From Patescibacteria group bacterium (GTDB lineage: Bacteria; Patescibacteriota; Microgenomatia; UBA12405), in NCBI GenBank assembly GCA_038062455.1, contig JBBTXE010000001.1, positions 316,371 through 370,718 of the forward strand: a DNA stretch of 54,348 nt. Direction: 5' to 3'. The position numbers and the translations under genes were made by a program. Under the pieces are notes generated by a model. It was not told the DNA's origin, made no database searches, and saw only the letters and a program-made list of their open reading frames with translations. Positions 6,458 through 22,231 of this stretch are shown here, piece by piece. Position 1 is the stretch's first letter. Each line of letters begins with the position of its first letter.

Positions 6458-6955
6458 ATGAAAAAAATATTCACTCTGATTTTATTACCCTCCCTATTTC
6501 TTTCTGCTTGCGGTAAAACTCAAACTTTACCGGAACCTACCCCAACTCCGGTGCCCCGGGAATACGTCTTAACTGAAACAGATAAACCTCAAGCTAGCCT
6601 CATTCCCCGTAGCGATGGTCACGAACTTACTCTCAAAATCACCGGAATAAAGCCTGTTTTTGCCAAAATCGAATACGAACTTGTTTACACCGCCAGTGAT
6701 CAGGGTCTGGAAATCGAAAAAGGGGTTAGCGGCATTGCCGAATCTAAAGACATTGTCGCTGGAAAATTTGAACGAAAAATACTTCTAGGCACCGAAAGCT
6801 GTACTAATGGTTGTAAATATAAATATGATACCGGTGTTAATGGCGGCACTCTTAATTTGACTCTGATAACCCCAGACCATCAGGTAGCCTCAATGGCCTT
6901 GCCTTTTACCCTTAGCCTGGTCAAATCCAAGGGCTACACTATCACCTGGAAATAA
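6458..6955 (+). CDS. Putative lipoprotein
   Basis: Signal peptide MKKIFTLILLPSLFLSAC with an LSAC lipobox, followed by a PTPTP linker. Confidence 0.65.
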   Translation: MKKIFTLILLPSLFLSACGKTQTLPEPTPTPVPREYVLTETDKPQASLIPRSDGHELTLKITGIKPVFAKIEYELVYTASDQGLEIEKGVSGIAESKDIVAGKFERKILLGTESCTNGCKYKYDTGVNGGTLNLTLITPDHQVASMALPFTLSLVKSKGYTITWK

Positions 6956-7821
6956 TGATCTTTCACCAACCTGTCCTTCTCAATGAAGTTGTTAAACTTT
7001 TAAATCCCCGAAAAGGTGATATTTTTTTTGACGCCACTCTTGGTCATGGCGGCCACACAATTTCCCTTCTTCGGCATGAAGCCACAGTTTTCGGCCTCGA
7101 CGCTGATAAAAATAACCTAACTTTTGCCACCCAAAGAATTGCCAAACTTAATTTATCTGCCACTTTTCACCCCCTTTGGGGAAATTTTTCCCATCTAAAA
7201 AATATTTGGAAAAAACATATTAATACCCCCCTTGACGGGCTCCTCCTCGATTTGGGTCTTAGTTCTTCTCAACAAAAATCCCTAAACCGGGGCTTTTCTT
7301 TTAATGATCGACTATCTTTGGACATGAGACTGGATACTTCCCACCAAAAAATCACCGCCGCCAAAATCGTCAACACCGCTCCCGAAGAAGAACTCTTTAC
7401 CATTTTTTCCAAAATTTCCCAGGAAAAATACAGTCGACCCCTGGCTCAACGGATTATCCGTCAGCGTCAGCGACAGCCTATTAAATCCAGCTACGATCTA
7501 GCTCAAATTATCCGCTCTTTTTATGATGCCAGGAAAATCAAAAGCCACCATGATCCAGCCACCAAAATATTTATGGCCCTGCGAATTGCTGTCAACAATG
7601 AATTTGCCAACCTCAATAAGGCCCTTCAGGCTTCCCTTGACACCATCAAAACCAATGGTCGGGTCGTTGTTATTACCTTTCATTCCGGGGAAGACCGTTT
7701 GGTGAAGAATTTCATCAGAAATTCCCATCTTAAATCCTTAAAACTATCTCCTTCCAGAAACGAAATAAAAAGCAACCCTCTTTCCCGCTCGGCCATCTTA
7801 AGGTCTTATACTATTAGCTAA
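6955..7821 (+). CDS. rsmH: 16S rRNA m4C1402 methyltransferase
   Basis: HQPVLLNEV, DATLGHGGH, DLGLSS, LDMRLD, ALRIAVNNE, VITFHSGEDRLVK, NPLSRSAILR. Confidence 0.95.
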   Translation: MIFHQPVLLNEVVKLLNPRKGDIFFDATLGHGGHTISLLRHEATVFGLDADKNNLTFATQRIAKLNLSATFHPLWGNFSHLKNIWKKHINTPLDGLLLDLGLSSSQQKSLNRGFSFNDRLSLDMRLDTSHQKITAAKIVNTAPEEELFTIFSKISQEKYSRPLAQRIIRQRQRQPIKSSYDLAQIIRSFYDARKIKSHHDPATKIFMALRIAVNNEFANLNKALQASLDTIKTNGRVVVITFHSGEDRLVKNFIRNSHLKSLKLSPSRNEIKSNPLSRSAILRSYTIS

Positions 7822-8018
7822 TGCCTACCCGACTGCTTCTATCTGCCACTGTTGGTTTAATCGTTTTTCAACTATTATTTTCCTTTTTTTACTCCAGCCA
7901 AATTGTTAAATTCAACCGGGATTTCTCCCTTCTCCAAAAAAAATACCGTGATTTTCTGGATCAAAACCAATCTCTGGAACAAAAATACGTCCAAAAATTT
8001 AGTCTCAACCATGAATGA
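7821..8018 (+). CDS. FtsL-like bitopic cell-division protein
   Basis: 65 aa with a single TM helix and coiled coil, located between rsmH and the PBP gene (the ftsL position). Confidence 0.6.
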   Translation: MPTRLLLSATVGLIVFQLLFSFFYSSQIVKFNRDFSLLQKKYRDFLDQNQSLEQKYVQKFSLNHE

Positions 8019-9576
8019 TGACCGGATAAAAATACTTCAACTTACTATCATTGTTTCATTTTTTGTAGTCATCTTCCGTCTTTTTTACTGGCAAATCTTT
8101 CAGGGACAAACTATTCGAAACCGCCACCAAAATCAAATTTACCAACAAACAAAGGTTCTTCCAAAGCTCGGTCATTTATTAACATCAGATTCTTTTCCTA
8201 TCAGTCTTGATTCCCGTTTTTATCTTTTATCGCTCTATAAACCCAATCTCACTACCCAACTCGATAAGGTTCTGGTTTCTATAGAAAAAATAAAACCTGG
8301 GTTTACTTCAGAATCAGCTAAACAAATTGAGTTTTTCCTCAAACCACATATCAAATGGGTTACTCTGCCTACCAAATTCACTAGTGCTGAAATAAAAAAA
8401 ATCGATCTGCCTGGTATCAGCTTTGAGGAACAAATTACCCGATACTATCCGGAAGGGGATTTGGCCAAGGATTTAATTTTAAATCTTGAATACTATTACA
8501 AACGCAGTCTTTCGGGAAAAATAGGCTTTATTACTTCCCCGATAGACGCTACCGGCCAACCGATATTAAGCCGAAAAAACTGGCACAAAAGTGAAATCGA
8601 CGGGAAAACTATTTCCCTAAGTCTTAACCGTCAAATCCAAACGATTCTGGTTGCTTCTCTCGAAGATGGAATAAAACGTTTCCGGGCTGAAAATGCTACT
8701 GGAATAATTATCAGACCTCAAAGCGGCGAAATCATGGCTATGGCGACTGTTCCTCTGGTGGCCACTCAAAGTATGCCGCTCCGTCCCATTTCTTACCTTT
8801 TTGAACCCGGATCAATTTTCAAACCACTGGTTTTAGCCATGGCCCTAAATGAGGGCAGTGTCGGCCTTGATTTCGTCTGCCCGATCTGCGATAAACCGCG
8901 TATTTACGGCCAATATACTATTAATAACTGGGACGAAAAAACCCACCCCGATTCCACCCTTAAAGATGTCATCAGGAATTCAGACAACATCGCCATGAGC
9001 TATATTATCGAGAAACTGGGACTGGCCACCTTTCAAAAATATTTCCATCAACTTGGTCTTGATCAAAAAACCGGCGTTGACTTGGTGGGGGAATCAATTT
9101 CATTATTAAAAAAATACTGGTCTGATATTGATTTGGCCACCGCTTCATTTGGCCAGGGTTTCGCCGTCAATGAACTCCAAATGCTTCGGGCCTTTAACAC
9201 TCTGGCCAACCTTGGCCAGCTTTCCTCACCTCATCTCAACACCGCCATTCCTTTAAAAGAAAGTCCGGTTTTTTCCACCAATACAGTCGATAGCGTCGTC
9301 GACATTCTCAAATATGCCACCGAATTTGGCGCCGTTGGCAGTTTAAAACCAAAAAATCTTGAAGTCTGCGCCAAAAGCGGCACTGCTCAAGTAGCCATTA
9401 GCGGTCAATATACTGATACCGACGCAGTTGCTTCCTATATCGGTTTTTCTCCCTGCACTAACCCCAAATTCACCATGATAATTACCTTTGATAAACCAAA
9501 AACCTCTTCCTGGGGCTCATCTACCGCCGCCCCGATTTGGTTTGAAATCGCCGCTAAAATCTCCCCTTTGTTATAA
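8011..9576 (+). CDS. ftsI: Class B penicillin-binding protein (FtsI-like)
   Basis: TM anchor, EPGSIFK (SxxK), SDN (SxN), KSGTAQ (KTG). Start taken at ATG 8011. Confidence 0.88.
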   Translation: MNDDRIKILQLTIIVSFFVVIFRLFYWQIFQGQTIRNRHQNQIYQQTKVLPKLGHLLTSDSFPISLDSRFYLLSLYKPNLTTQLDKVLVSIEKIKPGFTSESAKQIEFFLKPHIKWVTLPTKFTSAEIKKIDLPGISFEEQITRYYPEGDLAKDLILNLEYYYKRSLSGKIGFITSPIDATGQPILSRKNWHKSEIDGKTISLSLNRQIQTILVASLEDGIKRFRAENATGIIIRPQSGEIMAMATVPLVATQSMPLRPISYLFEPGSIFKPLVLAMALNEGSVGLDFVCPICDKPRIYGQYTINNWDEKTHPDSTLKDVIRNSDNIAMSYIIEKLGLATFQKYFHQLGLDQKTGVDLVGESISLLKKYWSDIDLATASFGQGFAVNELQMLRAFNTLANLGQLSSPHLNTAIPLKESPVFSTNTVDSVVDILKYATEFGAVGSLKPKNLEVCAKSGTAQVAISGQYTDTDAVASYIGFSPCTNPKFTMIITFDKPKTSSWGSSTAAPIWFEIAAKISPLL

Positions 9577-9577
9577 T
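9569..9577 (+). promoter_or_regulatory. Extended -10 promoter (TGTTATAAT) for murE
   Basis: TGnTATAAT ends 12 nt before ATG 9590. Confidence 0.55.
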
Positions 9578-9589
9578 AAATCACGCCCT

Positions 9590-10816
9590 ATGTTCCAAAA
9601 ACTTAAAAACTATCTCTGGCACCTGCCCAGAACGCTTTTTTGGCAAACTTTCTACCTTTTCCCTCAAAAGTCATTGGTGTTAATCGGAGTTACTGGAACC
9701 GACGGCAAGACCAGTACCTGCAACCTTATCCACCAAATCTTATCCAACGCCAACATCAACGTTAAATCAATCACCACCATCAACAGCCCCGGACTTCACA
9801 CCACCAGCAATTTTAGCTCTAAAACTTTCTTTCAACTGTTAAAACAATATCAAAAAGACGGAGTTACTCATGTTATCTGTGAAGCCACTTCCCACGCCCT
9901 GGACCAATTTCGATACTTTGGCTGCCATTTCACCGCCAGTGTCATCACCAATCTCTCCCATGAACACCTTGACTATCACCGAAATATGGGAAACTATTTA
10001 AAAGCTAAATCACGTCTTTTTTGTCAATCAAAATATAAAATCCTCAACGCTGACGATCCTTATTTTCCGCAGCTAAAAAAACTACTCAAAAAAAACATTT
10101 TTACCTACTCAATCAAAAATCCATCAAACTTTCAGGCCAAAAAAATAAACATTTCCCCTGAATCTGTTTCTTTCGTCCTTGATAAGCAAATATATATTTC
10201 CGATTCACCCTATAAATACCAAATATACAATCTGCTGGCTGGTATCTCTCTAACCCAAAAACTCAAAATAAATAAAAAAATAATTATTGCCTCTATCCGC
10301 CACTTTCCTGAAACCAAAGGTCGACGGGAAATTGTCAAAAACAATTTCAAAATAAATTGTATTGTCGACTTTGCCCATACCCCCAACGCCTTATTTGAAA
10401 CTTTAACCGCACTTAAAATAATTTACCCGAATGGCAAACTTATCTGCCTCTTTGGCGCCACCGGTGGTCGTGACCAAAGCAAACGTCCTTTAATGGGAAA
10501 AATAGTTTCAGAAATCGCCGACGTTGCCATTATCACCGCTGACGACACTAGAAACGAACCAATCGATTCTATCAACCAGCAAATTATTTCCGGAATTAAT
10601 CCCAAAAAAATTAAGCAAAAAAAATTTCAGTATCACAATATCTTTAACCGTCAGGATGCCTTCAACTTTGCCGTCAAAATTGCTAACCCCGGCGATACTA
10701 TCATCGCCTGCGGCAAAGGCCATGAACTAAGCATCCTTCATAGTAAAACCGAATACCCTTGGTCGGAAACCGAAGCTTTTAAAACCGCTTTTAGAAATCG
10801 GGACCAAAATGTTTAA
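9590..10816 (+). CDS. murE: MurE-family Mur ligase
   Basis: IGVTGTDGKTST, EATSHALDQ, TNLSHEHLDYH, VDFAHTPNAL, FGATGGRD, GKGHE. Start taken at ATG 9590. Confidence 0.9.
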   Translation: MFQKLKNYLWHLPRTLFWQTFYLFPQKSLVLIGVTGTDGKTSTCNLIHQILSNANINVKSITTINSPGLHTTSNFSSKTFFQLLKQYQKDGVTHVICEATSHALDQFRYFGCHFTASVITNLSHEHLDYHRNMGNYLKAKSRLFCQSKYKILNADDPYFPQLKKLLKKNIFTYSIKNPSNFQAKKINISPESVSFVLDKQIYISDSPYKYQIYNLLAGISLTQKLKINKKIIIASIRHFPETKGRREIVKNNFKINCIVDFAHTPNALFETLTALKIIYPNGKLICLFGATGGRDQSKRPLMGKIVSEIADVAIITADDTRNEPIDSINQQIISGINPKKIKQKKFQYHNIFNRQDAFNFAVKIANPGDTIIACGKGHELSILHSKTEYPWSETEAFKTAFRNRDQNV

Positions 10817-11402
10817 CTTAAAAAATAACTTCTCTGTCGAAGAAAATTACCAAAACGGCTTCCTGCCGCAACGGAATTCCCGGAGTCTTTTTTACCAACA
10901 GACTAGCTGCCGATCCAATCTATCTTTATTTAACCTAAGTTCGGAAAATCGACGAATTCTTAACAAAACCGCCGCCTTTGCCTTTGAAGTTTCGCTTCTA
11001 TCTGATTTTTCATTTTCCTTAGCTACCCAAAAAACCATCTTTAAATGGGTAAAAAAACTCAACTGGGATTTCCCCATGTCCTCAATCAAAAATATCTTTA
11101 CCAATCATATCTTCAACCGACTTTATATTTGGAAAGACTCACCGGAAAGTATTATTGCCTATTCCCTTTGTTATTTCTCAAATACTCTTTCCCATATTGC
11201 TTACGTTTTTTACAATCCTGAGTTTTCCCATACCAATCTTCCCATCCGCCTTACCCTTCAGACTATTATCGATAGTCACCAAAATAAATTAGCTTTCTGC
11301 TACCTTGGCCGCTTTGACCCCAAACCGGAAGGCGTTGGCTACTACAAAAGAAACATGCCCGGATTTGAATACTTTTCTCAAAACCGGTGGAGACAATTAT
11401 GA
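10809..11402 (+). CDS. ATE1/Bpt-like aminoacyl-tRNA-dependent transferase (divergent, short)
   Basis: N-terminal Y..GF...R...F.LSSENRRIL and C-terminal HIAYVFYNPEF...CYLG...YYKR resemble the ATE_N and ATE_C consensus (VYTFYDPD...YYYLG...YK). Recognised by eye only. Confidence 0.6.
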   Translation: MFNLKNNFSVEENYQNGFLPQRNSRSLFYQQTSCRSNLSLFNLSSENRRILNKTAAFAFEVSLLSDFSFSLATQKTIFKWVKKLNWDFPMSSIKNIFTNHIFNRLYIWKDSPESIIAYSLCYFSNTLSHIAYVFYNPEFSHTNLPIRLTLQTIIDSHQNKLAFCYLGRFDPKPEGVGYYKRNMPGFEYFSQNRWRQL

Positions 11403-12712
11403 AAATTCATATTTTAGCGATTGGTGGCACCATGACTACTCCTTTGGCCCTAGCCTTAAAAAACGATGGCCACACCGTTACCGGCAGTGATCAAAAATAT
11501 ATTTATCCTCCTTTTAGCCAAAATCTTTACCATGCCCATATACCAATTAACCCCAAACTCAATTCTTTTTCTCCTGACTTAGTTATCGTCGGTTCTGCTT
11601 TTAAAAAATTTAGCCATACTCAAACCGAATTTGAATTTTTCAAAAATAAAAAAACTCCTTATATCTCCGCCACCAAATACATTGCTGACAATTTAATAAA
11701 AAGTAATAGTATTTTAGTTGCCGGAAGCTACGGTAAAACCACCATAACTGCGGCGCTTTCTTGGATCCTGACCAAAATCGGCTTTAATCCTTCTTATTTC
11801 TTCGGCGGCCAAAGTAAAAACCGTTTCCCGTCACTTAGGTTTTCCTCATCCGATTGGTCAGTAGTCGAAGCTGACGAATCTAAAAACGGTCTCGATACTC
11901 AGGCTAAGTTTTTATACTATCCGGTAAAATATTTGATTTTAACTTCATCCCGTTGGGAACATCACGATTCCTACAAAAGTAAAACCGAAAATCAAGAAAG
12001 TTTTATCAAACTAATTAAGCGGCTTCCCCCTGATGGCCTTTTGGTTTATAACGCCCAAGATCCGTCAACCAAGTCTCTTATCAAATACGCCCAATGTAAA
12101 AGTATCGACTATTCCCTATATACCTCAAAACATCCTTTTCTTTTCGGCCAACACAATCAAAACAATCTGGCGGCCTGCGTTATCCTCTGCCTTAATCTAG
12201 GAATAAGTCCTCAAAAAACTGATTTTTATCTTCAAAAATTTAAAGGCATTAAACGCCGGCTGGAATTAATATCAACTATAAAAAATACCTATTTTTACGA
12301 CGACTTTGGCCAAAATCCGATCCGTATCGATGCCTGTCTTTCGGCACTTGCCGATAAATTTCCCAATCAAAGAATTTTGGTTATTTTAGAACCACATGCT
12401 TCTTTTCTCCAATACCCAAACTCCCTCAAAGGCCTCGGTTCGGCTCTCAAAAAAGCCTCTAAAGTTTTTTTGGGTAAAATTCAATATTCTCAAAATAAAA
12501 ATACCCGAACCTCCTTTTCTGATTATCAAAAGCTTTTAGGTGATAAACTTATCTATCTGCCCCTTTACCCCGATCTCCAAAATTCGGTTTTGTCTTCCCT
12601 TAACCCAGGCGATGTTTTAGTTCACTTTAGTTCCGGAGGTCTGTCCGGCCTAAAAACCTTCAAACAAATTATTAATAAATTCAAATATCAAGCTTTAGAA
12701 ATTAGAAATTAG
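11399..12712 (+). CDS. MurC/Mpl-family ligase, N-terminus Mpl-like
   Basis: MKIHILAIGG...GHTVTGSDQKYIYPPFS, VAGSYGKTT, VEADES, KGIKRRLE, DDFGQNP, ILEPH. Confidence 0.85.
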   Translation: MKIHILAIGGTMTTPLALALKNDGHTVTGSDQKYIYPPFSQNLYHAHIPINPKLNSFSPDLVIVGSAFKKFSHTQTEFEFFKNKKTPYISATKYIADNLIKSNSILVAGSYGKTTITAALSWILTKIGFNPSYFFGGQSKNRFPSLRFSSSDWSVVEADESKNGLDTQAKFLYYPVKYLILTSSRWEHHDSYKSKTENQESFIKLIKRLPPDGLLVYNAQDPSTKSLIKYAQCKSIDYSLYTSKHPFLFGQHNQNNLAACVILCLNLGISPQKTDFYLQKFKGIKRRLELISTIKNTYFYDDFGQNPIRIDACLSALADKFPNQRILVILEPHASFLQYPNSLKGLGSALKKASKVFLGKIQYSQNKNTRTSFSDYQKLLGDKLIYLPLYPDLQNSVLSSLNPGDVLVHFSSGGLSGLKTFKQIINKFKYQALEIRN

Positions 12713-12715
12713 AAA
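12695..12715. repeat. Heptamer tandem repeat (TTAGAAA)x3
   Basis: Read directly; spans the stop codon of the murC/mpl-like gene. Confidence 0.85.
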
Positions 12716-12723
12716 TTAACCAT

Positions 12724-14052
12724 ATGTCACGCTATATAATTACCGGCGGCAAAACCCTAACCGGTGAAGTCTCTATCCGTGGGGCTAAAAATGCCAGTTT
12801 CAAACAAATTATTGCCTCGCTTTTAAGTGACCAAACTACTCATCTATCCAACATCCCTCAAATTTCGGATGTCAGAATTACCCAAAGTATCGCCGAAAGT
12901 CTTGGCAGCCAGATTAACTCAATCGGAGAGCATAGTCTAGAAATTACTACCAAAAATATTACTTCTTCCGTAGTTCCTCATGGAACCGGTGAAAAATCCC
13001 GAACTTCATTTATGTTCGCTGCCCCTCTGCTTCTTCGCACCGGTCAGGCCATTATACCCACTCCCGGTGGCGACAAGCTTGGGGCCCGACCCCTCGACCG
13101 TCTCTTTGAATGTTTTGACAAAATGGGAATTACTACCGAAGTAACCAACGATACTATTCGTTTTTCCACCCTAAAAATCAAACCAACTACTTTTTGTTTT
13201 CCCAAACCATCCCATACTGTCACTGAAGTTTTATTAATGGTCTCCGCTTTAATAACCGGTCAAACAATTTTAGAAAACTCTTCCCTGGAACCGGAAATTG
13301 ACGATCTTTTAATTATGCTCAATTCCATGGGGGCAAAAATTCATCGTGATCCCGCCAACCCCAAAACCATTATCATTGACGGTGTCAACAGTCTTTCCGG
13401 TACTTCTCACCAAGTTATTGCCGACCGTAACGAAACCGTCACCTTTGCCTGCGCCGCCCTGGCCACTAAGGGCTCAATTAATATCCTCAACACCGATCCA
13501 AAAATTGTGGCTACCTTTTTAAAAACCATTCAAAAAATGGGGGCTAAAATTTTCTCCGGTAAGGACGAAATTACTGTCTCTTGGAATAAACCCTTAAAGG
13601 CAATTGATATCGAAACCGGACCGGAACCTCTCTTTATGACTGATTGGCAGGCTATCTTTTCCGTCCTTTTAACCCAAACTATCGGGGTTAGTTCCATCAT
13701 TGAACGGGTTTACCCTAATCGTTTCCAACACATTTCTAATTTAGAAAAGATGGGAGCAAAGGCCAAATATTTTAACCCGAAAGTTAAAAACCCGGAAAAT
13801 TTTTACGAATTTAATCCCCAAAGCGACCAACCCCAATATTTTCACGGTGTCAAAATATATGGACCAGTAAAACTTAAACCCGCTGATTTCAAAATTAACG
13901 ATCTTCGGGCCGGCGCTTCAATCACCCTGGCCGCTTTGACTGCCGCCGGTACCTCCACTATTGACAACGTCGAGTACATTGAACGTGGCTACGAAAAACT
14001 AGCCGAACGTCTCAAATCACTTGGCGCCTTAATAGAGTATATTAAAACTTAA
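12724..14052 (+). CDS. murA: UDP-N-acetylglucosamine 1-carboxyvinyltransferase
   Basis: GAKNA, PGGDKLGARP, EPEI, IADRNE, TDWQA, IERVYPNRF, DLRAGA, IERGYE. Confidence 0.93.
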   Translation: MSRYIITGGKTLTGEVSIRGAKNASFKQIIASLLSDQTTHLSNIPQISDVRITQSIAESLGSQINSIGEHSLEITTKNITSSVVPHGTGEKSRTSFMFAAPLLLRTGQAIIPTPGGDKLGARPLDRLFECFDKMGITTEVTNDTIRFSTLKIKPTTFCFPKPSHTVTEVLLMVSALITGQTILENSSLEPEIDDLLIMLNSMGAKIHRDPANPKTIIIDGVNSLSGTSHQVIADRNETVTFACAALATKGSINILNTDPKIVATFLKTIQKMGAKIFSGKDEITVSWNKPLKAIDIETGPEPLFMTDWQAIFSVLLTQTIGVSSIIERVYPNRFQHISNLEKMGAKAKYFNPKVKNPENFYEFNPQSDQPQYFHGVKIYGPVKLKPADFKINDLRAGASITLAALTAAGTSTIDNVEYIERGYEKLAERLKSLGALIEYIKT

Positions 14053-14057
14053 AGTCT

Positions 14058-15092
14058 ATGATTCATCTCTACCTAGGTCTTCTTTTGTTTTCCTTTTTTA
14101 CCACCAGCATATTAGTTGTCCCCTTTATTAACATTCTCTATCGTCTTAAATTTCAGCGGCAGCGCCAAAAAACTCTCGATTTTCAAAATCGCCGGACGCC
14201 AATTTTTGATAAGTTTCACCGGGAAAAATCAGGTACTCCCGTTGGCGGCGGGCTATTAATTATCCTGTCAGTAACGATTCTCTTTTCCTTCCTTTTCCCG
14301 ATTCTTAAATTCTCCCAAATATTTATTTCCAGTAATTTCCGGCTCAATCATGAAATTGAAGTCATCTTTTTTACCTTTATTAGTTTTGGGCTTTTAGGTC
14401 TCTACGATGATATATCCAAATTTTTTGGAATCAAAAAATCCGGTTTCTTTGGTCTTAGGCTGAAACACAAACTTCTTCTTCAACTAATTTTAGCCGCTAT
14501 TGCCTCCTCCTTAATTTTTTTCCGTTTAGGAATTAATTTTATTTATCTACCCTTCCTTGGCGCCATTAATCTAGGTCTATTTTTTATTCCCATTTCTACT
14601 GTCATTATTGCGTCTTTCACTAATTTCTTTAACATTACCGACGGTCTTGATGGCTTATCCTGCGGCATCTTAACCATTTCCCTTTTTGCTTTCTGGATCC
14701 TGGCCGGCTCTTCCTTCGACACCCCTATTTCTCTTTTTATTTCCCTCTGGATTGGGGCTCTAATCGCCTTTCTCTACTTTAACGTCTTCCCCGCCCGAAT
14801 TTGGCTGGGCGATGTCGGTTCTCTTTCTTTTGGAGCTACTTTTGCCGTAATTGCTCTGCTCTTAGGGAAAATAGTTCCCTTAATTATTGTCGGCGCTCCT
14901 TTTATCATCGAAGGGCTAAGCAGCGCCATTCAAATAGTTTCCAAAACTTATTTTAAGAAAAAAGTCTTTCCGGCCGCCCCAATCCATCTGACCCTTCAAA
15001 AAATCGGTTGGGAAGAACCTAAAATTGTTTTACGTGCCTGGCTGGCAACCATTATTCTGGCTATCTTTGGCTTATGGCTGGGTCTAAACTAG
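14058..15092 (+). CDS. mraY: Phospho-N-acetylmuramoyl-pentapeptide transferase
   Basis: KSGTPVGGG, GLYDD, NFFNITDGLDGL, GDVGS, APIHLTLQKIGWEEPKIV; multi-TM. Confidence 0.93.
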   Translation: MIHLYLGLLLFSFFTTSILVVPFINILYRLKFQRQRQKTLDFQNRRTPIFDKFHREKSGTPVGGGLLIILSVTILFSFLFPILKFSQIFISSNFRLNHEIEVIFFTFISFGLLGLYDDISKFFGIKKSGFFGLRLKHKLLLQLILAAIASSLIFFRLGINFIYLPFLGAINLGLFFIPISTVIIASFTNFFNITDGLDGLSCGILTISLFAFWILAGSSFDTPISLFISLWIGALIAFLYFNVFPARIWLGDVGSLSFGATFAVIALLLGKIVPLIIVGAPFIIEGLSSAIQIVSKTYFKKKVFPAAPIHLTLQKIGWEEPKIVLRAWLATIILAIFGLWLGLN

Positions 15093-15649
15093 ATCTTCTC
15101 TACCTTGAAACTCAAAAATACCTTGGCTTACCCTACTTTTCTAATCTAGGTCGACACCAAACCTCATCTTCAAACAACGCTGATGTCGGAAAAGGCAGTG
15201 CCAAAGAAATTGCTCTCAGAACAATTGAGATCGCGAACCTTGAAAATATTAAATTAGTTAATCTGTCCCCAATCCAAATTTACAACTTTCAAAAAAAGCA
15301 CCGTCTCGGCATCGATTGTTCCGGTCTCGTTTGTCATCTTTTAAATTTTTATTTCTCACTTTCACTGAATCCCCGAAAAACCTCTGCCAATAAATTGACT
15401 TCCTTACCTCTCTCTACCACTATCAAACTCGGCGATATTCGCACCGGGGATCTTATCCGTCAAAAAAACGGTCGCCATGTTCTCTTCGTCATCAACCGTT
15501 TAGGCGACACCGTCAGCTACACCGACAGCCGTAAAGACAGCCGTGGAGTCAAAACTGACTCCTTTTCCCTGTCAAAACCGGATATTGAAATCGGGGGAGT
15601 ATTTCGGCTTACTTCTCTTCTATCAATACCTGATATTTCCACGGATTAA
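15074..15649 (+). CDS. NlpC/P60-like cysteine hydrolase
   Basis: GLPY...GIDCSGLV (catalytic Cys) and GDLI...GRHV (catalytic His). Confidence 0.7.
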   Translation: MAGSKLDLLYLETQKYLGLPYFSNLGRHQTSSSNNADVGKGSAKEIALRTIEIANLENIKLVNLSPIQIYNFQKKHRLGIDCSGLVCHLLNFYFSLSLNPRKTSANKLTSLPLSTTIKLGDIRTGDLIRQKNGRHVLFVINRLGDTVSYTDSRKDSRGVKTDSFSLSKPDIEIGGVFRLTSLLSIPDISTD

Positions 15650-15767
15650 GCGACACCATCTCTACTTCGGTCCCACACTCGCTACATTCTAAAATATCAC
15701 CTATCATTGTTTTATCACTATTTTTTATTTCCGCCTGACAATCAGGACAAATTACTTTTCCCATCAT
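15609..15767 (-). CDS. LysW/ArgW-like amino-group carrier protein (52 aa, absent from the ORF track)
   Basis: Hand translation: MMGKVICPDCQAEIKNSDKTMIGDILECSECGTEVEMVSLNPWKYQVLIEEK*. Two CxxC knuckles and the G[D/E]xxxCxxCGxExEVxSL[D/N]P pattern of LysW. Confidence 0.8.
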   Translation of the reverse strand: MMGKVICPDCQAEIKNSDKTMIGDILECSECGTEVEMVSLNPWKYQVLIEEK

Positions 15768-15795
15768 AATATATTAAAATGTAATAGCCTATTAT

Positions 15796-16596
15796 ATGAC
15801 ACCTTTAATCAAAATTGACTCAATCTTTCTAAAAAGGGAAGATCAAAACCCCACCGGCTCCGCCAAAGACAGAGCCCTTTTGCCTCAAGTCCAAAATCTA
15901 AAATCTAAAGGTTTTTCAAAAGCTGTCATTTCCTCAACCGGTAATGCCGCCATATCCGCTCAATTTTATTGCCGAAAGTTTCAAATTCCCTTAACTATTT
16001 TTCTTCCTCCGGCCGCTTCTCCTGAAAAACTCAAATTACTTGGCAAATTCACTATCTCCCCCAGACCAATCAGTGACGCCATTAAATTTGCCAAAGCCAA
16101 TCACGCCTATCTTCTCCGGCAATCTACCGATCCGGTTGCCCTCGAGGGTTACCAACAAATCGGTCAGGAGCTCATCTTTCAACTTCCCCAAATCAGCAGC
16201 CTTTTTGTTCCGGTTGGCAGCGGCACTACTCTGTTGGGTATCTCCCAAAGCCTACCTCAACCTGTCAAAATTTTTGCTGTTCAACCGGCCTCCCATTGCC
16301 CGATATCTTCATTATTTGACAAAAATTATTCTTCTGAAACCAGTTCACTAACCGACTCTCTCGGCGCTAAATATTTACCCCTAAAAAACAATATTTTAAA
16401 GGCTATTAGAGAAAGCGGGGGCGGGGGAGTTGTAGTTCAAAATCGAAATATTGAAATTGCCCAATCTTTCCTCATAAATAACAAAATCATTACTTCATCT
16501 GAAGGCGCATTGGCCCTAGCCGGATACCGAAAAATAAAAGAGGTTTACAATGTTGGCAACTATCCGGTTATTTTATTAACAGGGGCCAAAAGATGA
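15796..16596 (+). CDS. PLP-dependent enzyme, fold type II (threonine-synthase-like)
   Basis: LKREDQNPTGSAKDR (PLP lysine), SSTGNAA, EGYQQIGQEL, VPVGSGTT, SSEGALALAG. Confidence 0.85.
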   Translation: MTPLIKIDSIFLKREDQNPTGSAKDRALLPQVQNLKSKGFSKAVISSTGNAAISAQFYCRKFQIPLTIFLPPAASPEKLKLLGKFTISPRPISDAIKFAKANHAYLLRQSTDPVALEGYQQIGQELIFQLPQISSLFVPVGSGTTLLGISQSLPQPVKIFAVQPASHCPISSLFDKNYSSETSSLTDSLGAKYLPLKNNILKAIRESGGGGVVVQNRNIEIAQSFLINNKIITSSEGALALAGYRKIKEVYNVGNYPVILLTGAKR

Positions 16597-17705
16597 ATCT
16601 AGAAAACATTCTTGCCCATTTGCCGGTAGACTTTTTCTTTTTAGTAGTTGATAAGTTTTTAGATATTAACCTGCCCCGTCTTCCCAATTTCTATCCTATT
16701 TATCACCCCCATCTTTCCGTCAAAAACAGTGGTTATCTTTTATCGCAACCCGAAACTTTTGACTTTATCCAAAAAACAATCTCTTATTCCGGGCACAAAG
16801 TGGCCATTATTCCTTTCAAACCTTCAGCTAAAATCGATTTTATTTGTAAAAAAAATAATTGGATTTGTGTCGGCAACCCTCCTTCTTTAAATCGATTTTT
16901 TGAGAACAAAATAAATTTTCCCCAAATTATTACCAACTCCCATCTTCCCCAAATTCCCCATATTTCCGGCCCCTTAAATTCTAAACTATTATCCATTGCT
17001 GAAAAAAAATTCAATCTGCCCCTTGTTATCCAAACTCACTCCGGTTGGGCCGGCAACAGCACTCATTTAATTAAAGATTTAAAAAAAATATTTCAAATAA
17101 TTCCCCATGACACTCCAACAAAAATTTCTCCCTATCTTATCGGTTACACCCTCCTTAATAATTGCTGTCTAACTAGCCGCGGACTTCTCCAAAGTCCTCC
17201 CGCTCTCCAATATACCGGCATCCCCACGTTAACTTCAAACCCCTTTTCTACCGTTGGCCGCCAATGGCCCTCCCTGGCTCCTCCTAAAATTATTGCCAAA
17301 ATCCAAAAACTCACCACCAATTTTTCCGAAACTCTAAAAAAATATAAATACCGCGGTTTCTTTGGCCTGGATTTTCTGGTTTCTAAAAATATAGTTTATC
17401 TTTTAGAGTGCAACCCCCGCCTGACTGCCTCTTTTGCCTTTTATACCGACATCGAACTAAAAAATAAGCTAAACCCGCTTTTTTATTTTCACCTATTAGA
17501 GTTTTGCGCCCCGGATCAAATCAAAGATCTGACAAACGAAAACCGTTTTGACAACAAAAATATTATTGGCTCGGAAATTACCCTAAAAAACAAGCTCTCT
17601 GTAACCATTAATAAATATCACGATTACAAAATATTTTGCCATCATCTAAATCCGCAGCATATTGATCTGTCAATTTTAAAAAATCTCCAGAATGAAAAAA
17701 ACTAA
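16593..17705 (+). CDS. ATP-grasp ligase
   Basis: FENKINF, PLVIQTHSGWAGNST loop, YRGFFGLDFLV...YLLECNPRLTAS (ExN motif). ATGA overlap with the PLP gene. Confidence 0.85.
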   Translation: MNLENILAHLPVDFFFLVVDKFLDINLPRLPNFYPIYHPHLSVKNSGYLLSQPETFDFIQKTISYSGHKVAIIPFKPSAKIDFICKKNNWICVGNPPSLNRFFENKINFPQIITNSHLPQIPHISGPLNSKLLSIAEKKFNLPLVIQTHSGWAGNSTHLIKDLKKIFQIIPHDTPTKISPYLIGYTLLNNCCLTSRGLLQSPPALQYTGIPTLTSNPFSTVGRQWPSLAPPKIIAKIQKLTTNFSETLKKYKYRGFFGLDFLVSKNIVYLLECNPRLTASFAFYTDIELKNKLNPLFYFHLLEFCAPDQIKDLTNENRFDNKNIIGSEITLKNKLSVTINKYHDYKIFCHHLNPQHIDLSILKNLQNEKN

Positions 17706-18834
17706 GTTTCACTCCCCGCTTTTAATCTACATCTTCAGTCTGGTGACTATTGGTTTTTTATTTATCTCAGTATCCTCGCTTTTTGAGGCCCAAAGCAGTC
17801 AGGGTGATCCTTTTTTCTTTCTTCGAAAACAGGCCGTCTGGATTGGCAGTGGCTTTCTCCTGTTGTTAATTTCTTCGGCGTTTAATCTCGAATTTATTCG
17901 TAAATATTCTTTCTACCTCTATCTTTTTTCGATTGCCCTATTGGTTGCCGTTCTTATCCCCGGGTTAGGAGTAAAGGTTCTTGGCGCCAGACGCTGGTTT
18001 GATCTTGGGCCCATAAATATTCAGCCTTCGGAAATTTTTAAACTAGTCTCCGTTATTTTTTTCTCAGCCCTTTTTGCCGACCCGAATCAATCAACTTTTA
18101 AAAACCTCTTTTTCTTCCTCATCCCCGCCTTTGCCTTAATCGTCTTCGAACCAAACCTAAGTACCGCTCTTCTCTGTGCCGCTATTGTTTTTTCTATCTA
18201 TTACCTATCCGGTGGTCCCAACCTTCCTCTTTTTACCACTTTTCTCATTTTCATCGCTCTGGGAATTTTCCTGGTAGTTTCTTCTCCCTACCGTTTAGCC
18301 AGATTTAAAACTCTCTTAAATCAGGAAGGAAACCCTGACCAAAACTATCATAGTCAGCAAATAATAATTTCTCTGGCCTCCGGCGGCTGGTCAGGGAAGG
18401 GAATTGCCAACTCTGATCAAAAATATAGATTTTTACCTAAAATCAGCACTGATTCTATTTTAGCCATTATCGGTGAAGAAACTGGATTTATCGGATTAAG
18501 TGGTCTTTTATATCTATTCGTCTCTCTCGTTAATTATCTTTTCAAACTATCCAAACTCGTCAAGGAGCCTTTTGAAAAACTATTAGTCTCCGGTCTGGCC
18601 TGCTGGCTGTCATATCAGGCATTAATTAATTTTTCGGCCATTGTTTCCCTAATCCCTTTAACCGGAATTCCTTTCCCCTTTATCTCCTACGGCGGTTCCT
18701 CTCTTCTGACTCTTTTTATTGCCACCGGACTGGTTAGAAACATAGAAAAGCGACATCTTCCCTTGCTATACTCTCTTAATGCCAAGATCAAAAAAAATCG
18801 TCATCACCGGCACTCACCTCACTCCCGCCCTTGA
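17692..18834 (+). CDS. ftsW: SEDS protein FtsW
   Basis: GARRWFDLG, QPSEIFK, EPNLST, SGGWSGKG, TDSILAIIGEE, TGIPFPFISYGGSS; adjacent to murG. Confidence 0.9.
   Translation: MKKTKFHSPLLIYIFSLVTIGFLFISVSSLFEAQSSQGDPFFFLRKQAVWIGSGFLLLLISSAFNLEFIRKYSFYLYLFSIALLVAVLIPGLGVKVLGARRWFDLGPINIQPSEIFKLVSVIFFSALFADPNQSTFKNLFFFLIPAFALIVFEPNLSTALLCAAIVFSIYYLSGGPNLPLFTTFLIFIALGIFLVVSSPYRLARFKTLLNQEGNPDQNYHSQQIIISLASGGWSGKGIANSDQKYRFLPKISTDSILAIIGEETGFIGLSGLLYLFVSLVNYLFKLSKLVKEPFEKLLVSGLACWLSYQALINFSAIVSLIPLTGIPFPFISYGGSSLLTLFIATGLVRNIEKRHLPLLYSLNAKIKKNRHHRHSPHSRP
18764..18772 (+). promoter_or_regulatory. Extended -10 promoter (TGCTATACT) for murG
   Basis: Ends 6 nt before ATG 18779, implying a leaderless transcript. 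Confidence 0.45.
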
Positions 18835-19840
18835 ATTTATCCGTCAGCTTCAAAACGACCCTGACATCAACTGGGAAATTTATTACATCGGCCGGATTCA
18901 CAATTCCGGTGTCAACTCCACCCCCGCCATTGAGTCAAAATTAATTTCCAAAATTAAAATTAAATATTTTGGAATTGACTGCGGCAAATTCGACCGACGT
19001 TGGTTTCCCAACACTTTAAGCGGAATACCTCAAACATTTTCAGCTTTTTTTAAAGCTTTCCGAATCCTGGAACTTATTGAACCCCATCTGGTCTTATCGT
19101 TTGGTGGATACCTTTCCGTACCGGTAGTTTTCGCCGCCGCTATCAAAGGCATTCCTTCCGTCACCCACGAACAAACACCCACCCTAAGCCTTTCTACCCG
19201 CCTCAACAGTCTTTTTTCCAAATATGTCGCCTTATCATTTCCGCCGTCATCCCCGCGCAAGCGGGGACCTAAATACATCGTCACCGGTAATCTACTTCGA
19301 CAAGCAATATTTTCCCAAAAAAGCCCGATCTTCACTAAACTAAAGATTGACAAACCTATTATCTATGTCACCGGTGGTAACCAGGGATCTCTGTCTATAA
19401 ACAATCTCCTAAAAAAATCTCTACCTTTACTTACTAAAAATTATTTTATTATTCACCAGTACGGTCAAAAATCCAAGCCCAAAACTTCCCAAAACTATTT
19501 GCCCCTTGCCTATATTAACAGTCAAAATATTGGTTGGGTATTAAACCGCGCCTCCCTAATAATCAGTCGGGCCGGCGCCAATACCTGTCAGGAAATTGTG
19601 GCGCTTAAAATCAAATCAATTCTGATACCTTTGTTAACCAGTCAACAGGACGAACAGTTAAAAAACGCTGATTATGTTAAATCTCTTCAGCCGGACATCA
19701 CTATTATTATTCCTGAAAAAAATTTAAATCCCAAAATATTACAAGAAAGCATTGCCAAACTATTAATTATTAATTCTCCCAAAAGCTCTCCGGTAGCCCA
19801 AGAAAATCTCAAACTACTCAAACTCATTAAAACCATCTAA
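18779..19840 (+). CDS. murG: Lipid II GlcNAc transferase
   Basis: ITGTH, SFGGYLSVP, HEQT, VTGN, YVTGGNQGS, ISRAGANT, EQLKNA. Confidence 0.92.
   Translation: MPRSKKIVITGTHLTPALEFIRQLQNDPDINWEIYYIGRIHNSGVNSTPAIESKLISKIKIKYFGIDCGKFDRRWFPNTLSGIPQTFSAFFKAFRILELIEPHLVLSFGGYLSVPVVFAAAIKGIPSVTHEQTPTLSLSTRLNSLFSKYVALSFPPSSPRKRGPKYIVTGNLLRQAIFSQKSPIFTKLKIDKPIIYVTGGNQGSLSINNLLKKSLPLLTKNYFIIHQYGQKSKPKTSQNYLPLAYINSQNIGWVLNRASLIISRAGANTCQEIVALKIKSILIPLLTSQQDEQLKNADYVKSLQPDITIIIPEKNLNPKILQESIAKLLIINSPKSSPVAQENLKLLKLIKTI
19246..19270. repeat. REP-like palindrome, in frame inside murG
   Basis: GTCA-TCCCCGC-GCAA-GCGGGGA-CCT; same family as the copies at 52602, 53888, 53952 and 54327. Confidence 0.75.
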
Positions 19841-19849
19841 AATCAATCT

Positions 19850-21094
19850 ATGCAACGCTCTCGTCTTTTTACTTCAATCGACATCGGCACCTTCAAAATA
19901 ACTACTTTAATTGGCCAGTATTTTGACACCGGTCAAAAACTTAATATTATCGGTGCCGCCTCCGTTCCCGCCTCCGGCTTTAAAAAAGGCCAAATCATCA
20001 ACCTTGAACAGGCCTCTCATACCATCACCGAATCAATCGAATCCGCCGAAAGAATGGCCGGGGTTGAAATTAATTCCGCCTTTATCTCCCTGACAGCTCC
20101 CCATTTTGAATCTCTAAATTCCCACGGGGTGACTGCTGTCGGCAACCAAAACGGTGAAATCTCCACCGAAGATATCACCCGTGCCGTCGAAGCGGCCAAA
20201 GCCATTGCTCTCCCTGGCAACAAAGAGATAGTTCACATTATTCCTCGGGTCTTTAATGTCGACGGTCAGGAGGGAATTATCGACCCAATTGGCATGAACG
20301 GGGTTCGTCTCGAAGTTGAAGCTCATTTGATTTTGGCCTCCACCCCGGCCTTAAAGAACCTAAACAAGTGTCTCGAAGATATCGGCATTAAAACTATTTC
20401 CCTGGCCTACTCCGGTTTAACTGCCGCTAAGGCCTGCCTCTCGGAGACCGAAACCGAATTGGGAGTAGCCCTGGTTGATATCGGAGGCAGTAACACCACC
20501 ATCACCCTTTTTTCCGAAAACTCACCCCTGTTTTCCTCTTGTTTGCCCATTGGCGCCAACAATATTACTGCCGATCTGGCCATTGGGCTTCGCCTGCCTT
20601 TAGTCGATGCCGAAAAAATCAAAATTCGTCTGAATCATTTCTCCGAAAAGAAAGGTTTTGAAGATGAAATCGACCTCCAGCAATTTGGAGTAATTGGGGA
20701 CAATAACAAAATTTCTTTTTCTACCACCCTAAACGGAATAATCAAACCCCGCTTAAATGAAATCATCGGTCTGGTTTGGAACGAAATATGCTCTCATGGA
20801 TATCAAAGCTCAATTCCCGCCGGCTTGGTTCTCACTGGTGGGGGAGCCGAAACTCTGGAAATCAAAAATGTGGCTTCAGAAATTATTCCTTTGCCGGTTC
20901 GTATCGGAGAACCCCCCAAAGTTGGTGGAATTGTCGATGATATAACCAACCCCTCTTACAGCAGCGCCATCGGCGCCCTTCTCTTTTTTGCCAACTCCAA
21001 ACTGGCTTCCAAAAGTTCATCCCGCCAGATTAATTTTCCTTTAAGCGGAATTCTGGGAAAAATTAAAACTTTTCTTGAACCACTTTTACCCTAA
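19850..21094 (+). CDS. ftsA: Cell division protein FtsA
   Basis: IDIGTFKI, IESAERMAG, GVRLEVEAH, LVDIGG, AEKIK, VLTGGGA, PVRIG. Confidence 0.95.
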   Translation: MQRSRLFTSIDIGTFKITTLIGQYFDTGQKLNIIGAASVPASGFKKGQIINLEQASHTITESIESAERMAGVEINSAFISLTAPHFESLNSHGVTAVGNQNGEISTEDITRAVEAAKAIALPGNKEIVHIIPRVFNVDGQEGIIDPIGMNGVRLEVEAHLILASTPALKNLNKCLEDIGIKTISLAYSGLTAAKACLSETETELGVALVDIGGSNTTITLFSENSPLFSSCLPIGANNITADLAIGLRLPLVDAEKIKIRLNHFSEKKGFEDEIDLQQFGVIGDNNKISFSTTLNGIIKPRLNEIIGLVWNEICSHGYQSSIPAGLVLTGGGAETLEIKNVASEIIPLPVRIGEPPKVGGIVDDITNPSYSSAIGALLFFANSKLASKSSSRQINFPLSGILGKIKTFLEPLLP

Positions 21095-21097
21095 TCT

Positions 21098-22231
21098 ATG
21101 GGACTAGTTAAAACACTAACCGGCCAGTTTGCCAAAATAAAAGTCTTGGGTATCGGTGGCGGCGGCAACAACGCCATCAATTCCATGATCGCCGAAGACA
21201 ATATCAAAGGAGTCGACTTTATTGCCGTCAACACTGACTCTCAGGCCCTCCTCAACTCCAAAGCCCCGATTAAAATCCAAATTGGAGAAAAACTTACCAA
21301 AGGTTTAGGAGCCGGCGGTGATCCTCAAATTGGTCAACAGGCCGCTGAAGAGTCCCGGCAACGGTTAAAAGAAGTCATTGAAGACACCGACATGCTTTTT
21401 ATTACCGGCGGCATGGGTGGAGGCACCTGCACCGGCGCCGCTCCGATTATTGCCGAAATTGCCAAAAAAGAACTGGGGATTTTAACCATTGCCGTAGTTA
21501 CCAAACCCTTCCTCTTCGAAGGTACCCGCCGGATGAGCCGGGCCGAAGAAGGCGTTGCCCGGCTTCGTCAATTTGTCGATACCTTGATTGTGATCCCTAA
21601 TCAAAAAGTTATGGAGGTGGTCAATTCAGAGGCTACCCTGCTTGAAGCCTTTAGAACTGCCGATTCTGTTCTTAATAAAGGTACCAAAGCCATTGCTGAT
21701 CTGATTACCGTTCCCGGCCTCATCAATCTCGATTTTGCCGACATCAAATCAGTTATGAGCAATGCCGGCTCAGCTCTGATGGGAGTTGGTGAAGCAGAGG
21801 GGGTCGGCAAAGCCAAAAAAGCGGTTGAAGCTGCTATTGCTTCACCCTTAGTTGAGGTCGATATTAACGGTGCTCGTGGCGTTCTGATCAATATCACCGG
21901 CGGTCCCGATATCACTATGGCTGAAATCGAAGAAGCCGCTAAAATCATCACTTCTCATGTTGCCCCTGATGCTAATATTATCTTTGGCGCCTCGATCGAC
22001 GAAAACCTGACCGGTAAAATAAAAATCTCGGTAATTGCCACCGGCTTTGATTCGTCTAAATCAGCTTATCAAAACTATAAAAAAACTACAATTTCAACCG
22101 ATCTTTTGGATGAAAAACCAAAGCCCCTGTCGCCAGAATTTCAAAACCTTCTTAAAGACCAAACCATTCCCGAAGGTGTTGATATCGAAGACGAGTTCGA
22201 CATCCCCGCCTTTTTGCGCAAAAATCAATAG
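21098..22231 (+). CDS. ftsZ: Cell division protein FtsZ
   Basis: GIGGGGNNA, GGMGGGTCTG tubulin motif, NLDFAD, C-terminal DIPAFLRK. Confidence 0.97.
   Translation: MGLVKTLTGQFAKIKVLGIGGGGNNAINSMIAEDNIKGVDFIAVNTDSQALLNSKAPIKIQIGEKLTKGLGAGGDPQIGQQAAEESRQRLKEVIEDTDMLFITGGMGGGTCTGAAPIIAEIAKKELGILTIAVVTKPFLFEGTRRMSRAEEGVARLRQFVDTLIVIPNQKVMEVVNSEATLLEAFRTADSVLNKGTKAIADLITVPGLINLDFADIKSVMSNAGSALMGVGEAEGVGKAKKAVEAAIASPLVEVDINGARGVLINITGGPDITMAEIEEAAKIITSHVAPDANIIFGASIDENLTGKIKISVIATGFDSSKSAYQNYKKTTISTDLLDEKPKPLSPEFQNLLKDQTIPEGVDIEDEFDIPAFLRKNQ

Follow-up and report, generated by a model that had tools for sequence, protein, structure and literature searches.

How can a bacterium that retains most of the enzymes for making lipid II do without the ligase that adds the second residue of the stem peptide? 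This question is raised by a division and cell wall (dcw) gene cluster in the genome of a Candidatus Shapirobacteria (Patescibacteria, class Microgenomatia, according to the names on close homologues), a 665 kb assembly in 8 contigs that is rated 86% complete. The cluster lies within C1:316371-370718; this whole stretch of 54,348 nucleotides was analyzed and is referred to here as the window. MurC and MurD are regarded as essential to bacteria with a wall, as nearly universal among them and as targets for antibiotics. A sequence-only reading of the window had pointed out that murD, murF, ddl and murB are absent from it and that non-canonical genes are interleaved in the run from rsmH to ftsZ, and had proposed that the lineage builds a non-standard stem peptide, or salvages one, with the interleaved enzymes. 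The gene map, based on a listing of open reading frames (ORFs) and on Pfam and NCBIfam family scans, bears out these absences and the gene order, with one correction of strand.

The interleaved genes are six: those for a predicted ATE/Bpt-like aminoacyl-tRNA transferase (ATEl), a Mur ligase intermediate between MurC and Mpl (MurCl), a predicted NlpC/P60-like cysteine peptidase (P60l), a predicted LysW-like zinc-ribbon carrier (LysWl), a fold-type II pyridoxal phosphate (PLP) enzyme (PALP) and an ATP-grasp ligase (ATPg). The cluster resembles that of the canonical Mur pathway in its frame, rsmH...ftsZ, and in the presence in the genome of MurA, MurB, MurE, MurF, Ddl, MraY, MurG, FtsW and FtsI; unlike the canonical pathway, it includes no MurD, no MurI-type racemase and no first ligase that qualifies as a MurC equivalog. 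It is likely that the first steps of stem-peptide synthesis follow a non-canonical route. More specifically, we put at about even odds (a probability of roughly 0.5) that the six-gene module replaces the MurC and MurD steps; it probably also replaces the glutamate racemase MurI.

Absence of MurD and conservation of the module

The genome contains only three Mur-ligase genes, namely those for MurE, MurCl and, on contig C5, MurF. The best match in the genome to the MurD model TIGR01087 (cut-off 211.95 bits) is MurE, at 81.5 bits, and tblastn searches with two MurDs and two divergent MurD-like queries from relatives yielded only weak matches on MurE and MurCl. Among the 41 genomes of the order, the TIGR01087 cut-off is passed in only 3, all of family f2, so that MurD is missing from the other 38, several of which are rated 100% complete. 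Because MurD is also absent from these complete relatives, its absence is not an assembly gap, an explanation against which the tblastn searches speak as well; MurD is truly absent from this genome and from its lineage, family f2 excepted. One f2 genome (G025, 97% complete) has MurE as its single match to the MurD model and encodes neither ATEl nor an ATP-grasp protein; it may lack MurC, MurD and the module alike, or carry very divergent ligases.

The other genes missing from the window are intact elsewhere, and the possibility that the genome as a whole lacks them was discarded: murF and ddl form a convergent pair on contig C5 (L002 497-3320), where murF sits downstream of an alpha/beta-hydrolase-like ORF, and murB is located at C5:12418-12705. 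The earlier view of these three as lost genes thus does not hold, and because they are intact, what is unusual about the pathway is confined to MurC/MurD (and MurI). Of the proposed non-standard route, the part that concerns the early steps survives, given the conservation of the interleaved genes and the absence of MurD, and the part that concerns the later steps does not. Nor is there any indication of a non-standard stem peptide itself: the motif of MurE is unchanged, and MurF and Ddl point to a normal D-Ala-D-Ala end.

MurE (ORF at 9488-10816, plus strand, with ATG 9590 as the likely start) scores 311.7 bits with TIGR01085 (cut-off 257) and matches this model only from position 75/94 onward, without N-terminal domain 1. 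It seems to lack this UDP-binding domain, and similarly short MurE proteins (400-450 amino acids) are found in most relatives, with or without the module. The motif is DDTR in this MurE and (E/D)D(P/T)R in lineages with and without the module alike; we rejected the idea that DDTR signals an unusual, module-linked residue 3, since MurD-positive relatives have the same motif.

Besides MurD, two enzymes were not found in the genome, namely a MurI-type racemase (PF01177) and Alr. The racemase is likewise lacking in 34 of the 41 relatives, and any PF01177 match is present in only 3 of 30 ATEl-positive genomes; in MurD-positive genomes, MurI-type genes often adjoin MurD. Alr is encoded by 19 of the 41 relatives, the nearest ones included, and its absence here may be a gap; in the nearest relative (G019) the Alr gene lies about 1 kb from a murF-like gene on contig C17. 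We also considered complementarity between Alr and the PLP enzyme of the module and found no pattern, the distribution of Alr among module-positive genomes being patchy.

The distribution of the module is complementary to that of MurD. ATEl was detected in 35 of the 41 genomes of the order and in 30 of the 251 genomes sampled from the class, and within the order all families but f2 have both ATEl and ATPg, the few misses being fragmented genomes. In the class sample, where MurD was scored at a threshold of E<=1e-40, MurD is present in 187 genomes, none has both MurD and ATEl, and 34 have neither; Fisher's test of this exclusion gives p=2.7e-21, a naive value obtained on related genomes with no phylogenetic correction.

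The loci of relatives, which were fetched and then annotated with BLAST and hidden Markov models, reveal a persistent gene order. In families f1, f3, f5, f6 and f7 the cluster reads rsmH-(ftsL)-ftsI-murE-ATEl-MurCl-murA-(murF)-mraY-(P60l)-LysWl(opposite strand)-PALP-ATPg-ftsW-murG-ftsA-ftsZ; the f2 clusters contain MurC and MurD and none of the six module genes. The same order, including the small antisense gene, recurs in at least 20 loci from other genera and families at 30-75% protein identity, and synteny extends over no fewer than 12 families from two or more classes; in each of the loci examined, the LysWl gene is antisense to its neighbours. This arrangement is not due to chance. The sequence-only reading had named, as the outcome that would speak against it, intact murD, murF and ddl elsewhere in the genome together with extra genes that are not conserved in place; what we find is a genome without MurD and interleaved genes that hold their position in the dcw cluster across families.

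Two further groups of genomes extend this picture. Within family f9, one genome (G254) has the arrangement MurE-x-x-ATEl-MurCl-P60l-LysWl-PALP, with ATPg about 6 kb downstream (L032, L045), and a relative (G078) encodes canonical MurC and MurD in its dcw cluster, alongside Ddl and a MurF-like ligase (L039); this contrast points to a second swap that took place independently. When all GTDB species genomes were scanned, ATEl proteins of about 30% identity came up in metagenome-assembled genomes (MAGs) labelled Magasanikbacteria, Nomurabacteria and 'Saccharibacteria', in which the genes are arranged ATPg-P60l-MraY-ATEl-MurCl-LysWl(opposite strand)-PALP.

The module consists of two sub-modules, a pair (ATEl and MurCl) and a quartet (LysWl, ATPg, PALP and P60l). 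MurCl is always paired with ATEl, and the two are fused through a Pro/Ser linker, with MurCl complete in its three domains, in two proteins of 645 amino acids each, one of G030 and the representative protein P0242; within the quartet, ATPg is fused to P60l in a 690-amino acid Magasanikbacteria protein (L130). These fusions support functional coupling within the pair and within the quartet. The ATP-grasp profile retrieves all 30 ATEl-positive genomes and, in addition, family f42, which has no ATEl and encodes P60l, a MurD-like ligase, LysWl (opposite strand), PALP and ATPg in a compact operon away from the dcw cluster. The MurD-like ligase, the only MurD candidate in the f42 genomes, scores 190 bits against a cut-off of 212 and matches the MurD model only from position 82. 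In the f42 genome that was studied in detail (G076), the dcw cluster reads MurE-PgeF/YfiH-MurC-MurB-MurA, with a MurC that by BLAST is nearer to the canonical MurC of the class than to MurCl. The quartet thus travels either with the pair or with a divergent MurD-like ligase, and this partnership ties it to the residue-2 step.

The PgeF/YfiH gene of G076 (Cu-oxidase_4; L049 4453-5169) lies between murE and murC, exactly the slot that ATEl occupies elsewhere. PgeF is an editing enzyme for UDP-MurNAc-aminoacyl products.

Properties of the six proteins

Enzymes of the ATE family acylate the free alpha-amine of an acidic residue (Asp or Glu) on a protein. ATEl (10809-11402, plus strand; 197 amino acids), the gene for which overlaps murE by 8 nucleotides and the downstream MurCl gene by 16, scores 19.9 bits with Pfam ATE_C (PF04377), below the gathering cut-off of 25; ATE_C is matched by 12 of 15 ATEl homologues, with a best E-value of 9.5e-6. 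A sequence-profile search against the PDB returned nothing useful, and the fold search alone was informative: the top Foldseek matches of the AlphaFold2 model (predicted local distance difference test score, pLDDT, 92) are human, yeast and K. lactis ATE1 (8tzv, 8e3s, 7tif and 7wfx; TMq 0.65-0.75), followed by FemX and the MprF aminoacyl-phosphatidylglycerol synthases, and all of these are aminoacyl-tRNA transferases. ATEl is accordingly modeled with an ATE1-type fold. Invariant in the family are Y179-K180-R181, R22 and R35. In K. lactis ATE1, Tyr303 and Lys304 are catalytic and Arg80 forms the acidic-acceptor pocket (PMC9351520); the YKR motif of ATEl may match the former two residues, and Arg22 and Arg35 are candidates for the pocket. 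An aminoacyl-tRNA donor and an N-terminal Asp or Glu as acceptor would be compatible with these invariant residues. The Cys4 zinc finger that the ATE/Bpt family carries in ATE_N (PMC9351520) was sought as well: ATEl has no ATE_N match, and its alignment contains one partly conserved Cys (SCRS).

Like ATE1/Bpt and the Fem/MprF proteins, then, ATEl combines a predicted Gcn5-related N-acetyltransferase (GNAT)-type fold with a possible catalytic Tyr-Lys motif and weak ATE_C matches. Unlike ATE1/Bpt, it is small (197-260 amino acids), is devoid of the Cys4 zinc finger, and is encoded between Mur ligases and, in one lineage, fused to one; its predicted donor is Ala-tRNA and its predicted acceptor a tethered or free Glu. 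The nearest functional precedent is PacB, which resembles the Fem enzymes and uses Ala-tRNA to add Ala to a peptide held on a carrier. The ATE-like transferase family has a further fusion partner besides MurCl, seen in the representative protein P0286 (809 amino acids), where an ATE-like domain (residues 27-218) is joined to a PPDK_N ATP-binding domain and a phosphoenolpyruvate-utilizer mobile domain.

MurCl (11387/11399-12712, plus strand; 437-441 amino acids) scores 197 bits with the MurC model TIGR01082 (cut-off 335.1) and 188 bits with the Mpl model TIGR01081 (cut-off 388.7). Its relatives reach 211-293 and 153-249 bits, respectively, again below both cut-offs; the corresponding values for the canonical MurCs of the class are 345-358 and 172-187 bits. 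The best PDB match of the MurCl profile is 3hn7, which we take to be the Psychrobacter Mpl, and the N-terminal Mpl fragment 3eag scores 221 bits, versus 172 for MurC fragments of equal length. An N-terminal motif akin to the GSDxNIYPPMS-type motif of 3hn7, GSDxx(I/V/F)(Y/F)PP (here GSDQKYIYPP), is present in 12 of 12 MurCl proteins and in none of 4 canonical MurCs; MurCl is without the second His of HHP and, in Microgenomatia, also without the Arg of the MurC motif (Y/F)xRT. Judged by these signatures, MurCl falls between MurC and Mpl. Mpl is the UDP-MurNAc:L-Ala-gamma-D-Glu-meso-diaminopimelate (DAP) ligase, and MurCl shares with it (PDB 3hn7, 3eag) the three Mur-ligase domains, the GSDxxIYPP signature and the lack of the MurC (Y/F)xRT Arg. 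Unlike Mpl, MurCl is far below the Mpl cut-off and sits in a biosynthetic cluster, not in a recycling locus; MurE being retained here, the expected substrate of MurCl would be a dipeptide, not a tripeptide.

The gene for LysWl (15609-15767; 52 amino acids), which the sequence-only reading listed in the gene order between the P60l and PALP genes, is on the minus strand, convergent with the P60l gene, with an overlap of 41 nucleotides, and divergent from the PALP gene, with 28 nucleotides between the start codons; a promoter scan for this antisense gene gave 2 matches versus 1.1 expected and was uninformative. LysWl matches PF21344 with 47.5 bits (cut-off 27) and fails the equivalog model TIGR01206 (35.9 bits, cut-off 53.2). 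Canonical LysW ends in EDWGE, the terminal Glu being the attachment site. The tail of LysWl here is ...LIEEK, and each of the 23 Microgenomatia loci has ...[ILV]xEEK, f44 in the variant EDK; of the 120 database clusters that match best, 119 have EEK at the C-terminus, and the Magasanik-type proteins from the distant class end in ...DEGK. The terminal Lys is invariant. A 103-amino acid homologue (P0391) consists of two LysW-like zinc-ribbon domains in tandem and still ends in ...IEEEK. Public records name LysWl 'lysine biosynthesis protein LysW' and ATEl 'arginyltransferase' or hypothetical.

PALP (15796-16596, plus strand; 266 amino acids) matches PF00291 with 148 bits and contains the PLP-lysine motif GSAKDR, conserved as GS(A/V)KDR. 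None of the equivalog models for such enzymes is passed, the best being ThrC PRK08329 with 99.6 bits versus a cut-off of 358. Profile matches in the PDB include ThrC, Ser dehydratase, Ser racemase and Asp racemase, at 65-94 bits, and PALP is roughly equidistant from these four as well as from CysK and SbnA; its SS(T/S)GN motif fits several enzyme types.

ATPg (16593-17705, plus strand; 370 amino acids) matches PF02655 with 25.6 bits. Foldseek searches with its model (pLDDT 94.6) return biotin carboxylase, PurK, PurT and PurD with template modeling (TM) scores of 0.52-0.61, a generic likeness. P60l (15074-15649, plus strand; 191 amino acids) scores 21.4 bits with Pfam NLPC_P60, below the cut-off of 23; 18 homologues share, without exception, Cys82 of the GxDCSG motif, His135 and an extra GKG motif. 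Their sequences show no sign of a signal peptide, and the protein appears to be cytoplasmic.

As a set, the quartet is reminiscent of the LysW/ArgW systems, with a small zinc-ribbon carrier that has a flexible acidic tail, an ATP-grasp loader, one or more modifying enzymes and a releasing hydrolase. The differences are that the tail of LysWl is EEK or DEGK and not EDWGE, that the setting is a cell-wall cluster, that the ATP-grasp protein resembles the biotin carboxylase and Pur enzymes, that the modifier is a fold-type II PLP enzyme, and that the hydrolase belongs to NlpC/P60 and not to M20. No kinase, reductase, aminotransferase or M20 peptidase of the LysZ/Y/J/K type is present in any of the clusters, these enzymes not having been searched for genome-wide.

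A possible carrier-based route and its alternatives

If the module indeed replaces the MurC and MurD steps, the properties of its components would be compatible with a scheme in which L-Ala-D-Glu is assembled away from the nucleotide sugar, in reverse order and with recourse to the translation machinery, and then joined by MurCl to UDP-N-acetylmuramic acid (UDP-MurNAc). We propose this complete scheme tentatively, as a possibility that is more doubtful than the replacement itself. ATPg would activate one of the carboxylates of L-Glu, most probably that at the gamma position, and tie Glu to the epsilon-amine of the terminal Lys of LysWl. The change of the critical carrier residue from Glu, a carboxylate, to Lys, an amine, suggests that the cargo is attached via its own carboxylate; held in this manner, it would have its alpha-amine free for PLP chemistry and acylation, and LysWl would be an inverted LysW, that is, a carboxyl-group carrier protein. 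PALP, which needs a free alpha-amine, would then invert the alpha-carbon to give tethered D-Glu, onto which ATEl would transfer L-Ala from Ala-tRNA. MurD forms the L-Ala-CO-NH-Glu bond by activating UDP-MurNAc-L-Ala, and an ATE-type transferase could make the same bond with Ala-tRNA in place of this activated precursor. NlpC/P60 enzymes are known for cutting gamma-D-glutamyl amide bonds, which makes P60l a natural candidate for the release of L-Ala-D-Glu from the carrier. An Mpl-like ligase is what the attachment of a preformed peptide to UDP-MurNAc would need, and MurCl would ligate the dipeptide as Mpl does the tripeptide, after which MurE, MurF and Ddl, MraY and MurG would finish lipid II as usual. 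Such a scheme would employ all six genes and agree with the f42 operon, with the two fusions and with a genome that has lost MurC, MurD and MurI.

The only alternative to MurD and MurI that we encountered in the literature employs different proteins: in Xanthomonas, MurD2, a close MurD homologue, acts on UDP-MurNAc-L-Ala, and MurL epimerizes the product with ATP (PMC8788868). The resemblance lies in a route to D-Glu at position 2 without a glutamate racemase (PMC8788868); in contrast to that system, no MurD homologue is present here and other protein families are involved, MurL itself not having been searched for. A full-text literature search retrieved no published description of the module.

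Several observations weigh against the replacement of MurC and MurD by the module or against the scheme. Gene content, conservation, fusions, folds and phyletic complementarity are observed; every substrate and the order of the steps are inferred. In most lineages MurCl scores slightly higher on the MurC than on the Mpl model, and it may simply add L-Ala. Kinship of ATPg with LysX/RimK is supported by neither sequence profile nor fold, with no LysX or RimK among the 50 listed fold neighbours, and the sequence of PALP fits a racemase, a synthase or a dehydratase without deciding among them. P60l is missing from the f5 and f6 clusters (as seen at the level of the cluster). The complementarity with MurD rests on few independent evolutionary events, and family f2, which has MurD and no PF01177 match, indicates that D-Glu can come from elsewhere; the absence of MurI is therefore only in part a correlate of the module. 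Finally, in three of the distant loci (L125, L126 and L131) the full module is joined, next to PALP, by a gene for a divergent ligase of the MurD type (131-133 bits). This rules out that ATEl never occurs with a MurD-like ligase of any kind; the exclusion holds for canonical MurD only, and ATEl might have another role.

One alternative is direct displacement, in which MurCl is a divergent MurC that adds L-Ala, ATPg substitutes for MurD directly, ATEl adds a branch or bridge in the manner of Fem proteins and the carrier is an accessory. ATP-grasp enzymes do form amide bonds via acyl-phosphates, as Ddl does, the MurC score of MurCl equals or exceeds its Mpl score in most lineages, and the fold of ATEl resembles FemX too. 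We nevertheless consider this explanation rather unlikely, as f42 and the L125-type lineages possess ATPg together with a MurD-like ligase, which argues against ATPg being a plain substitute for MurD, the fusion and strict pairing of ATEl with MurCl connect ATEl to the first ligase and not to late branching, and the invariant Lys of the carrier and the fusion of ATPg with P60l are left without explanation. The salvage route that the sequence-only reading had offered as an option would have an epibiont import muropeptides from its host, P60l trim them to L-Ala-D-Glu and MurCl re-attach the dipeptide to UDP-MurNAc, with the other genes serving an unrelated modification. It would bypass MurC, MurD and MurI, and the Mpl-like motifs of MurCl, a P60l that appears cytoplasmic and a reduced 665 kb genome in which neither MurI nor Alr was found agree with it; still, it is unlikely, because it does not account for four of the six genes (ATEl, the carrier, PALP and ATPg), for their conservation and fusions with MurCl and P60l, or for a quartet operon with a MurD-like ligase in f42, and because the f5/f6 clusters have MurCl and ATEl but no P60l.

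Another explanation assigns to the quartet the synthesis of a special amino acid, such as a diamino acid or an analogue of DAP, which would be formed on the carrier by beta-replacement and be destined for position 3 or for a cross-bridge, the loss of MurD being a separate event. PALP is as near to beta-replacement enzymes (CysK, SbnA, ThrC) as to racemases, and LysW systems do build amino acids on their carrier. However, the presence of the module makes no difference to MurE or its specificity motif, the quartet has its linkage with the MurD-like or the ATEl/MurCl genes and not with MurE, and MurD would remain without a replacement, so that we regard this explanation as improbable. That MurD merely escaped detection in a genome of 86% completeness, and that the extra genes are unrelated passengers such as a remnant of LysW-type lysine synthesis, as the public name of the small gene would have it, is very improbable and largely refuted: MurD is absent from 38 of 41 relatives, among them complete ones, the genes are kept in place across classes, the clusters contain no LysX/Z/Y/J/K-type partners, and the tail is not EDWGE.

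Replacement of the MurC and MurD steps by the module, if it occurs, would have several implications. Synthesis of lipid II without MurC and MurD in a large and widespread uncultured group (among its members are Shapirobacteria and lineages that bear the labels Woesebacteria, Magasanikbacteria and Nomurabacteria) would show that the cytoplasmic Mur pathway is more plastic than assumed. Should the proposed scheme hold, aminoacyl-tRNA would have a second role in wall synthesis, beyond Fem-type branching, and LysWl would represent a new kind of LysW-like carrier that holds its cargo by the carboxyl instead of the amino group. In that case the public annotations 'lysine biosynthesis protein LysW' and 'arginyltransferase' would also need correction, and entries such as 'peptidoglycan pathway incomplete' in metabolic reconstructions of the Candidate Phyla Radiation (CPR) would read differently. 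All six proteins are small and soluble, which makes the hypothesis directly testable in vitro.

The remainder of the cluster and its surroundings

The front of the dcw cluster is formed by rsmH (6955-7821), an ftsL-like ORF (7821-8018) and ftsI (about 8011-9576), an order that is kept in relatives. The MurCl gene is followed by murA (12724-14052; 399 bits with TIGR01072) and mraY (14058-15092; the MraY proteins of relatives are 57-90% identical), and downstream of ATPg the canonical dcw tail consists of ftsW (17692-18834), murG (18779-19840), ftsA (19850-21094) and ftsZ (21098-22231), all on the plus strand. With rsmH, ftsL, ftsI, the mur genes, mraY, ftsW, murG, ftsA and ftsZ collinear, the locus is a dcw cluster. 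As had been noted, most junctions overlap or are only a few nucleotides wide; they range from a 56-nucleotide overlap to an 11-nucleotide gap, that between murG and ftsA being 9 nucleotides.

The cluster is flanked by the gene for glycyl-tRNA synthetase with a small lipoprotein-like ORF (5135-6454) and by the gene for isoleucyl-tRNA synthetase (22596-25379), and the same flanks recur in the loci of several families (L008, L018-L021, L024, L033, L034, L037). Over its full length (1-54348), the plus strand of the window, on which nearly all genes are encoded, has a strongly negative GC skew (-0.09 to -0.37); the sense strand is thus unusually rich in C over G.

Insertions into the cluster were observed in two relatives. 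In L131, an ORF with a reverse transcriptase domain (RVT_1; 6733-7761, minus strand) lies between ATEl and MurCl, possibly as a group II intron or an insertion of the retron type; in a genome of the same genus as the one analyzed here (G013), P60l and LysWl are separated by an inserted LytR_cpsA_psr gene (L027 9802-10854). Many MAGs with this CPR-type cluster are titled 'uncultured Gammaproteobacteria bacterium' (binchicken/SRP co-assemblies), titles that look like placeholders or errors.

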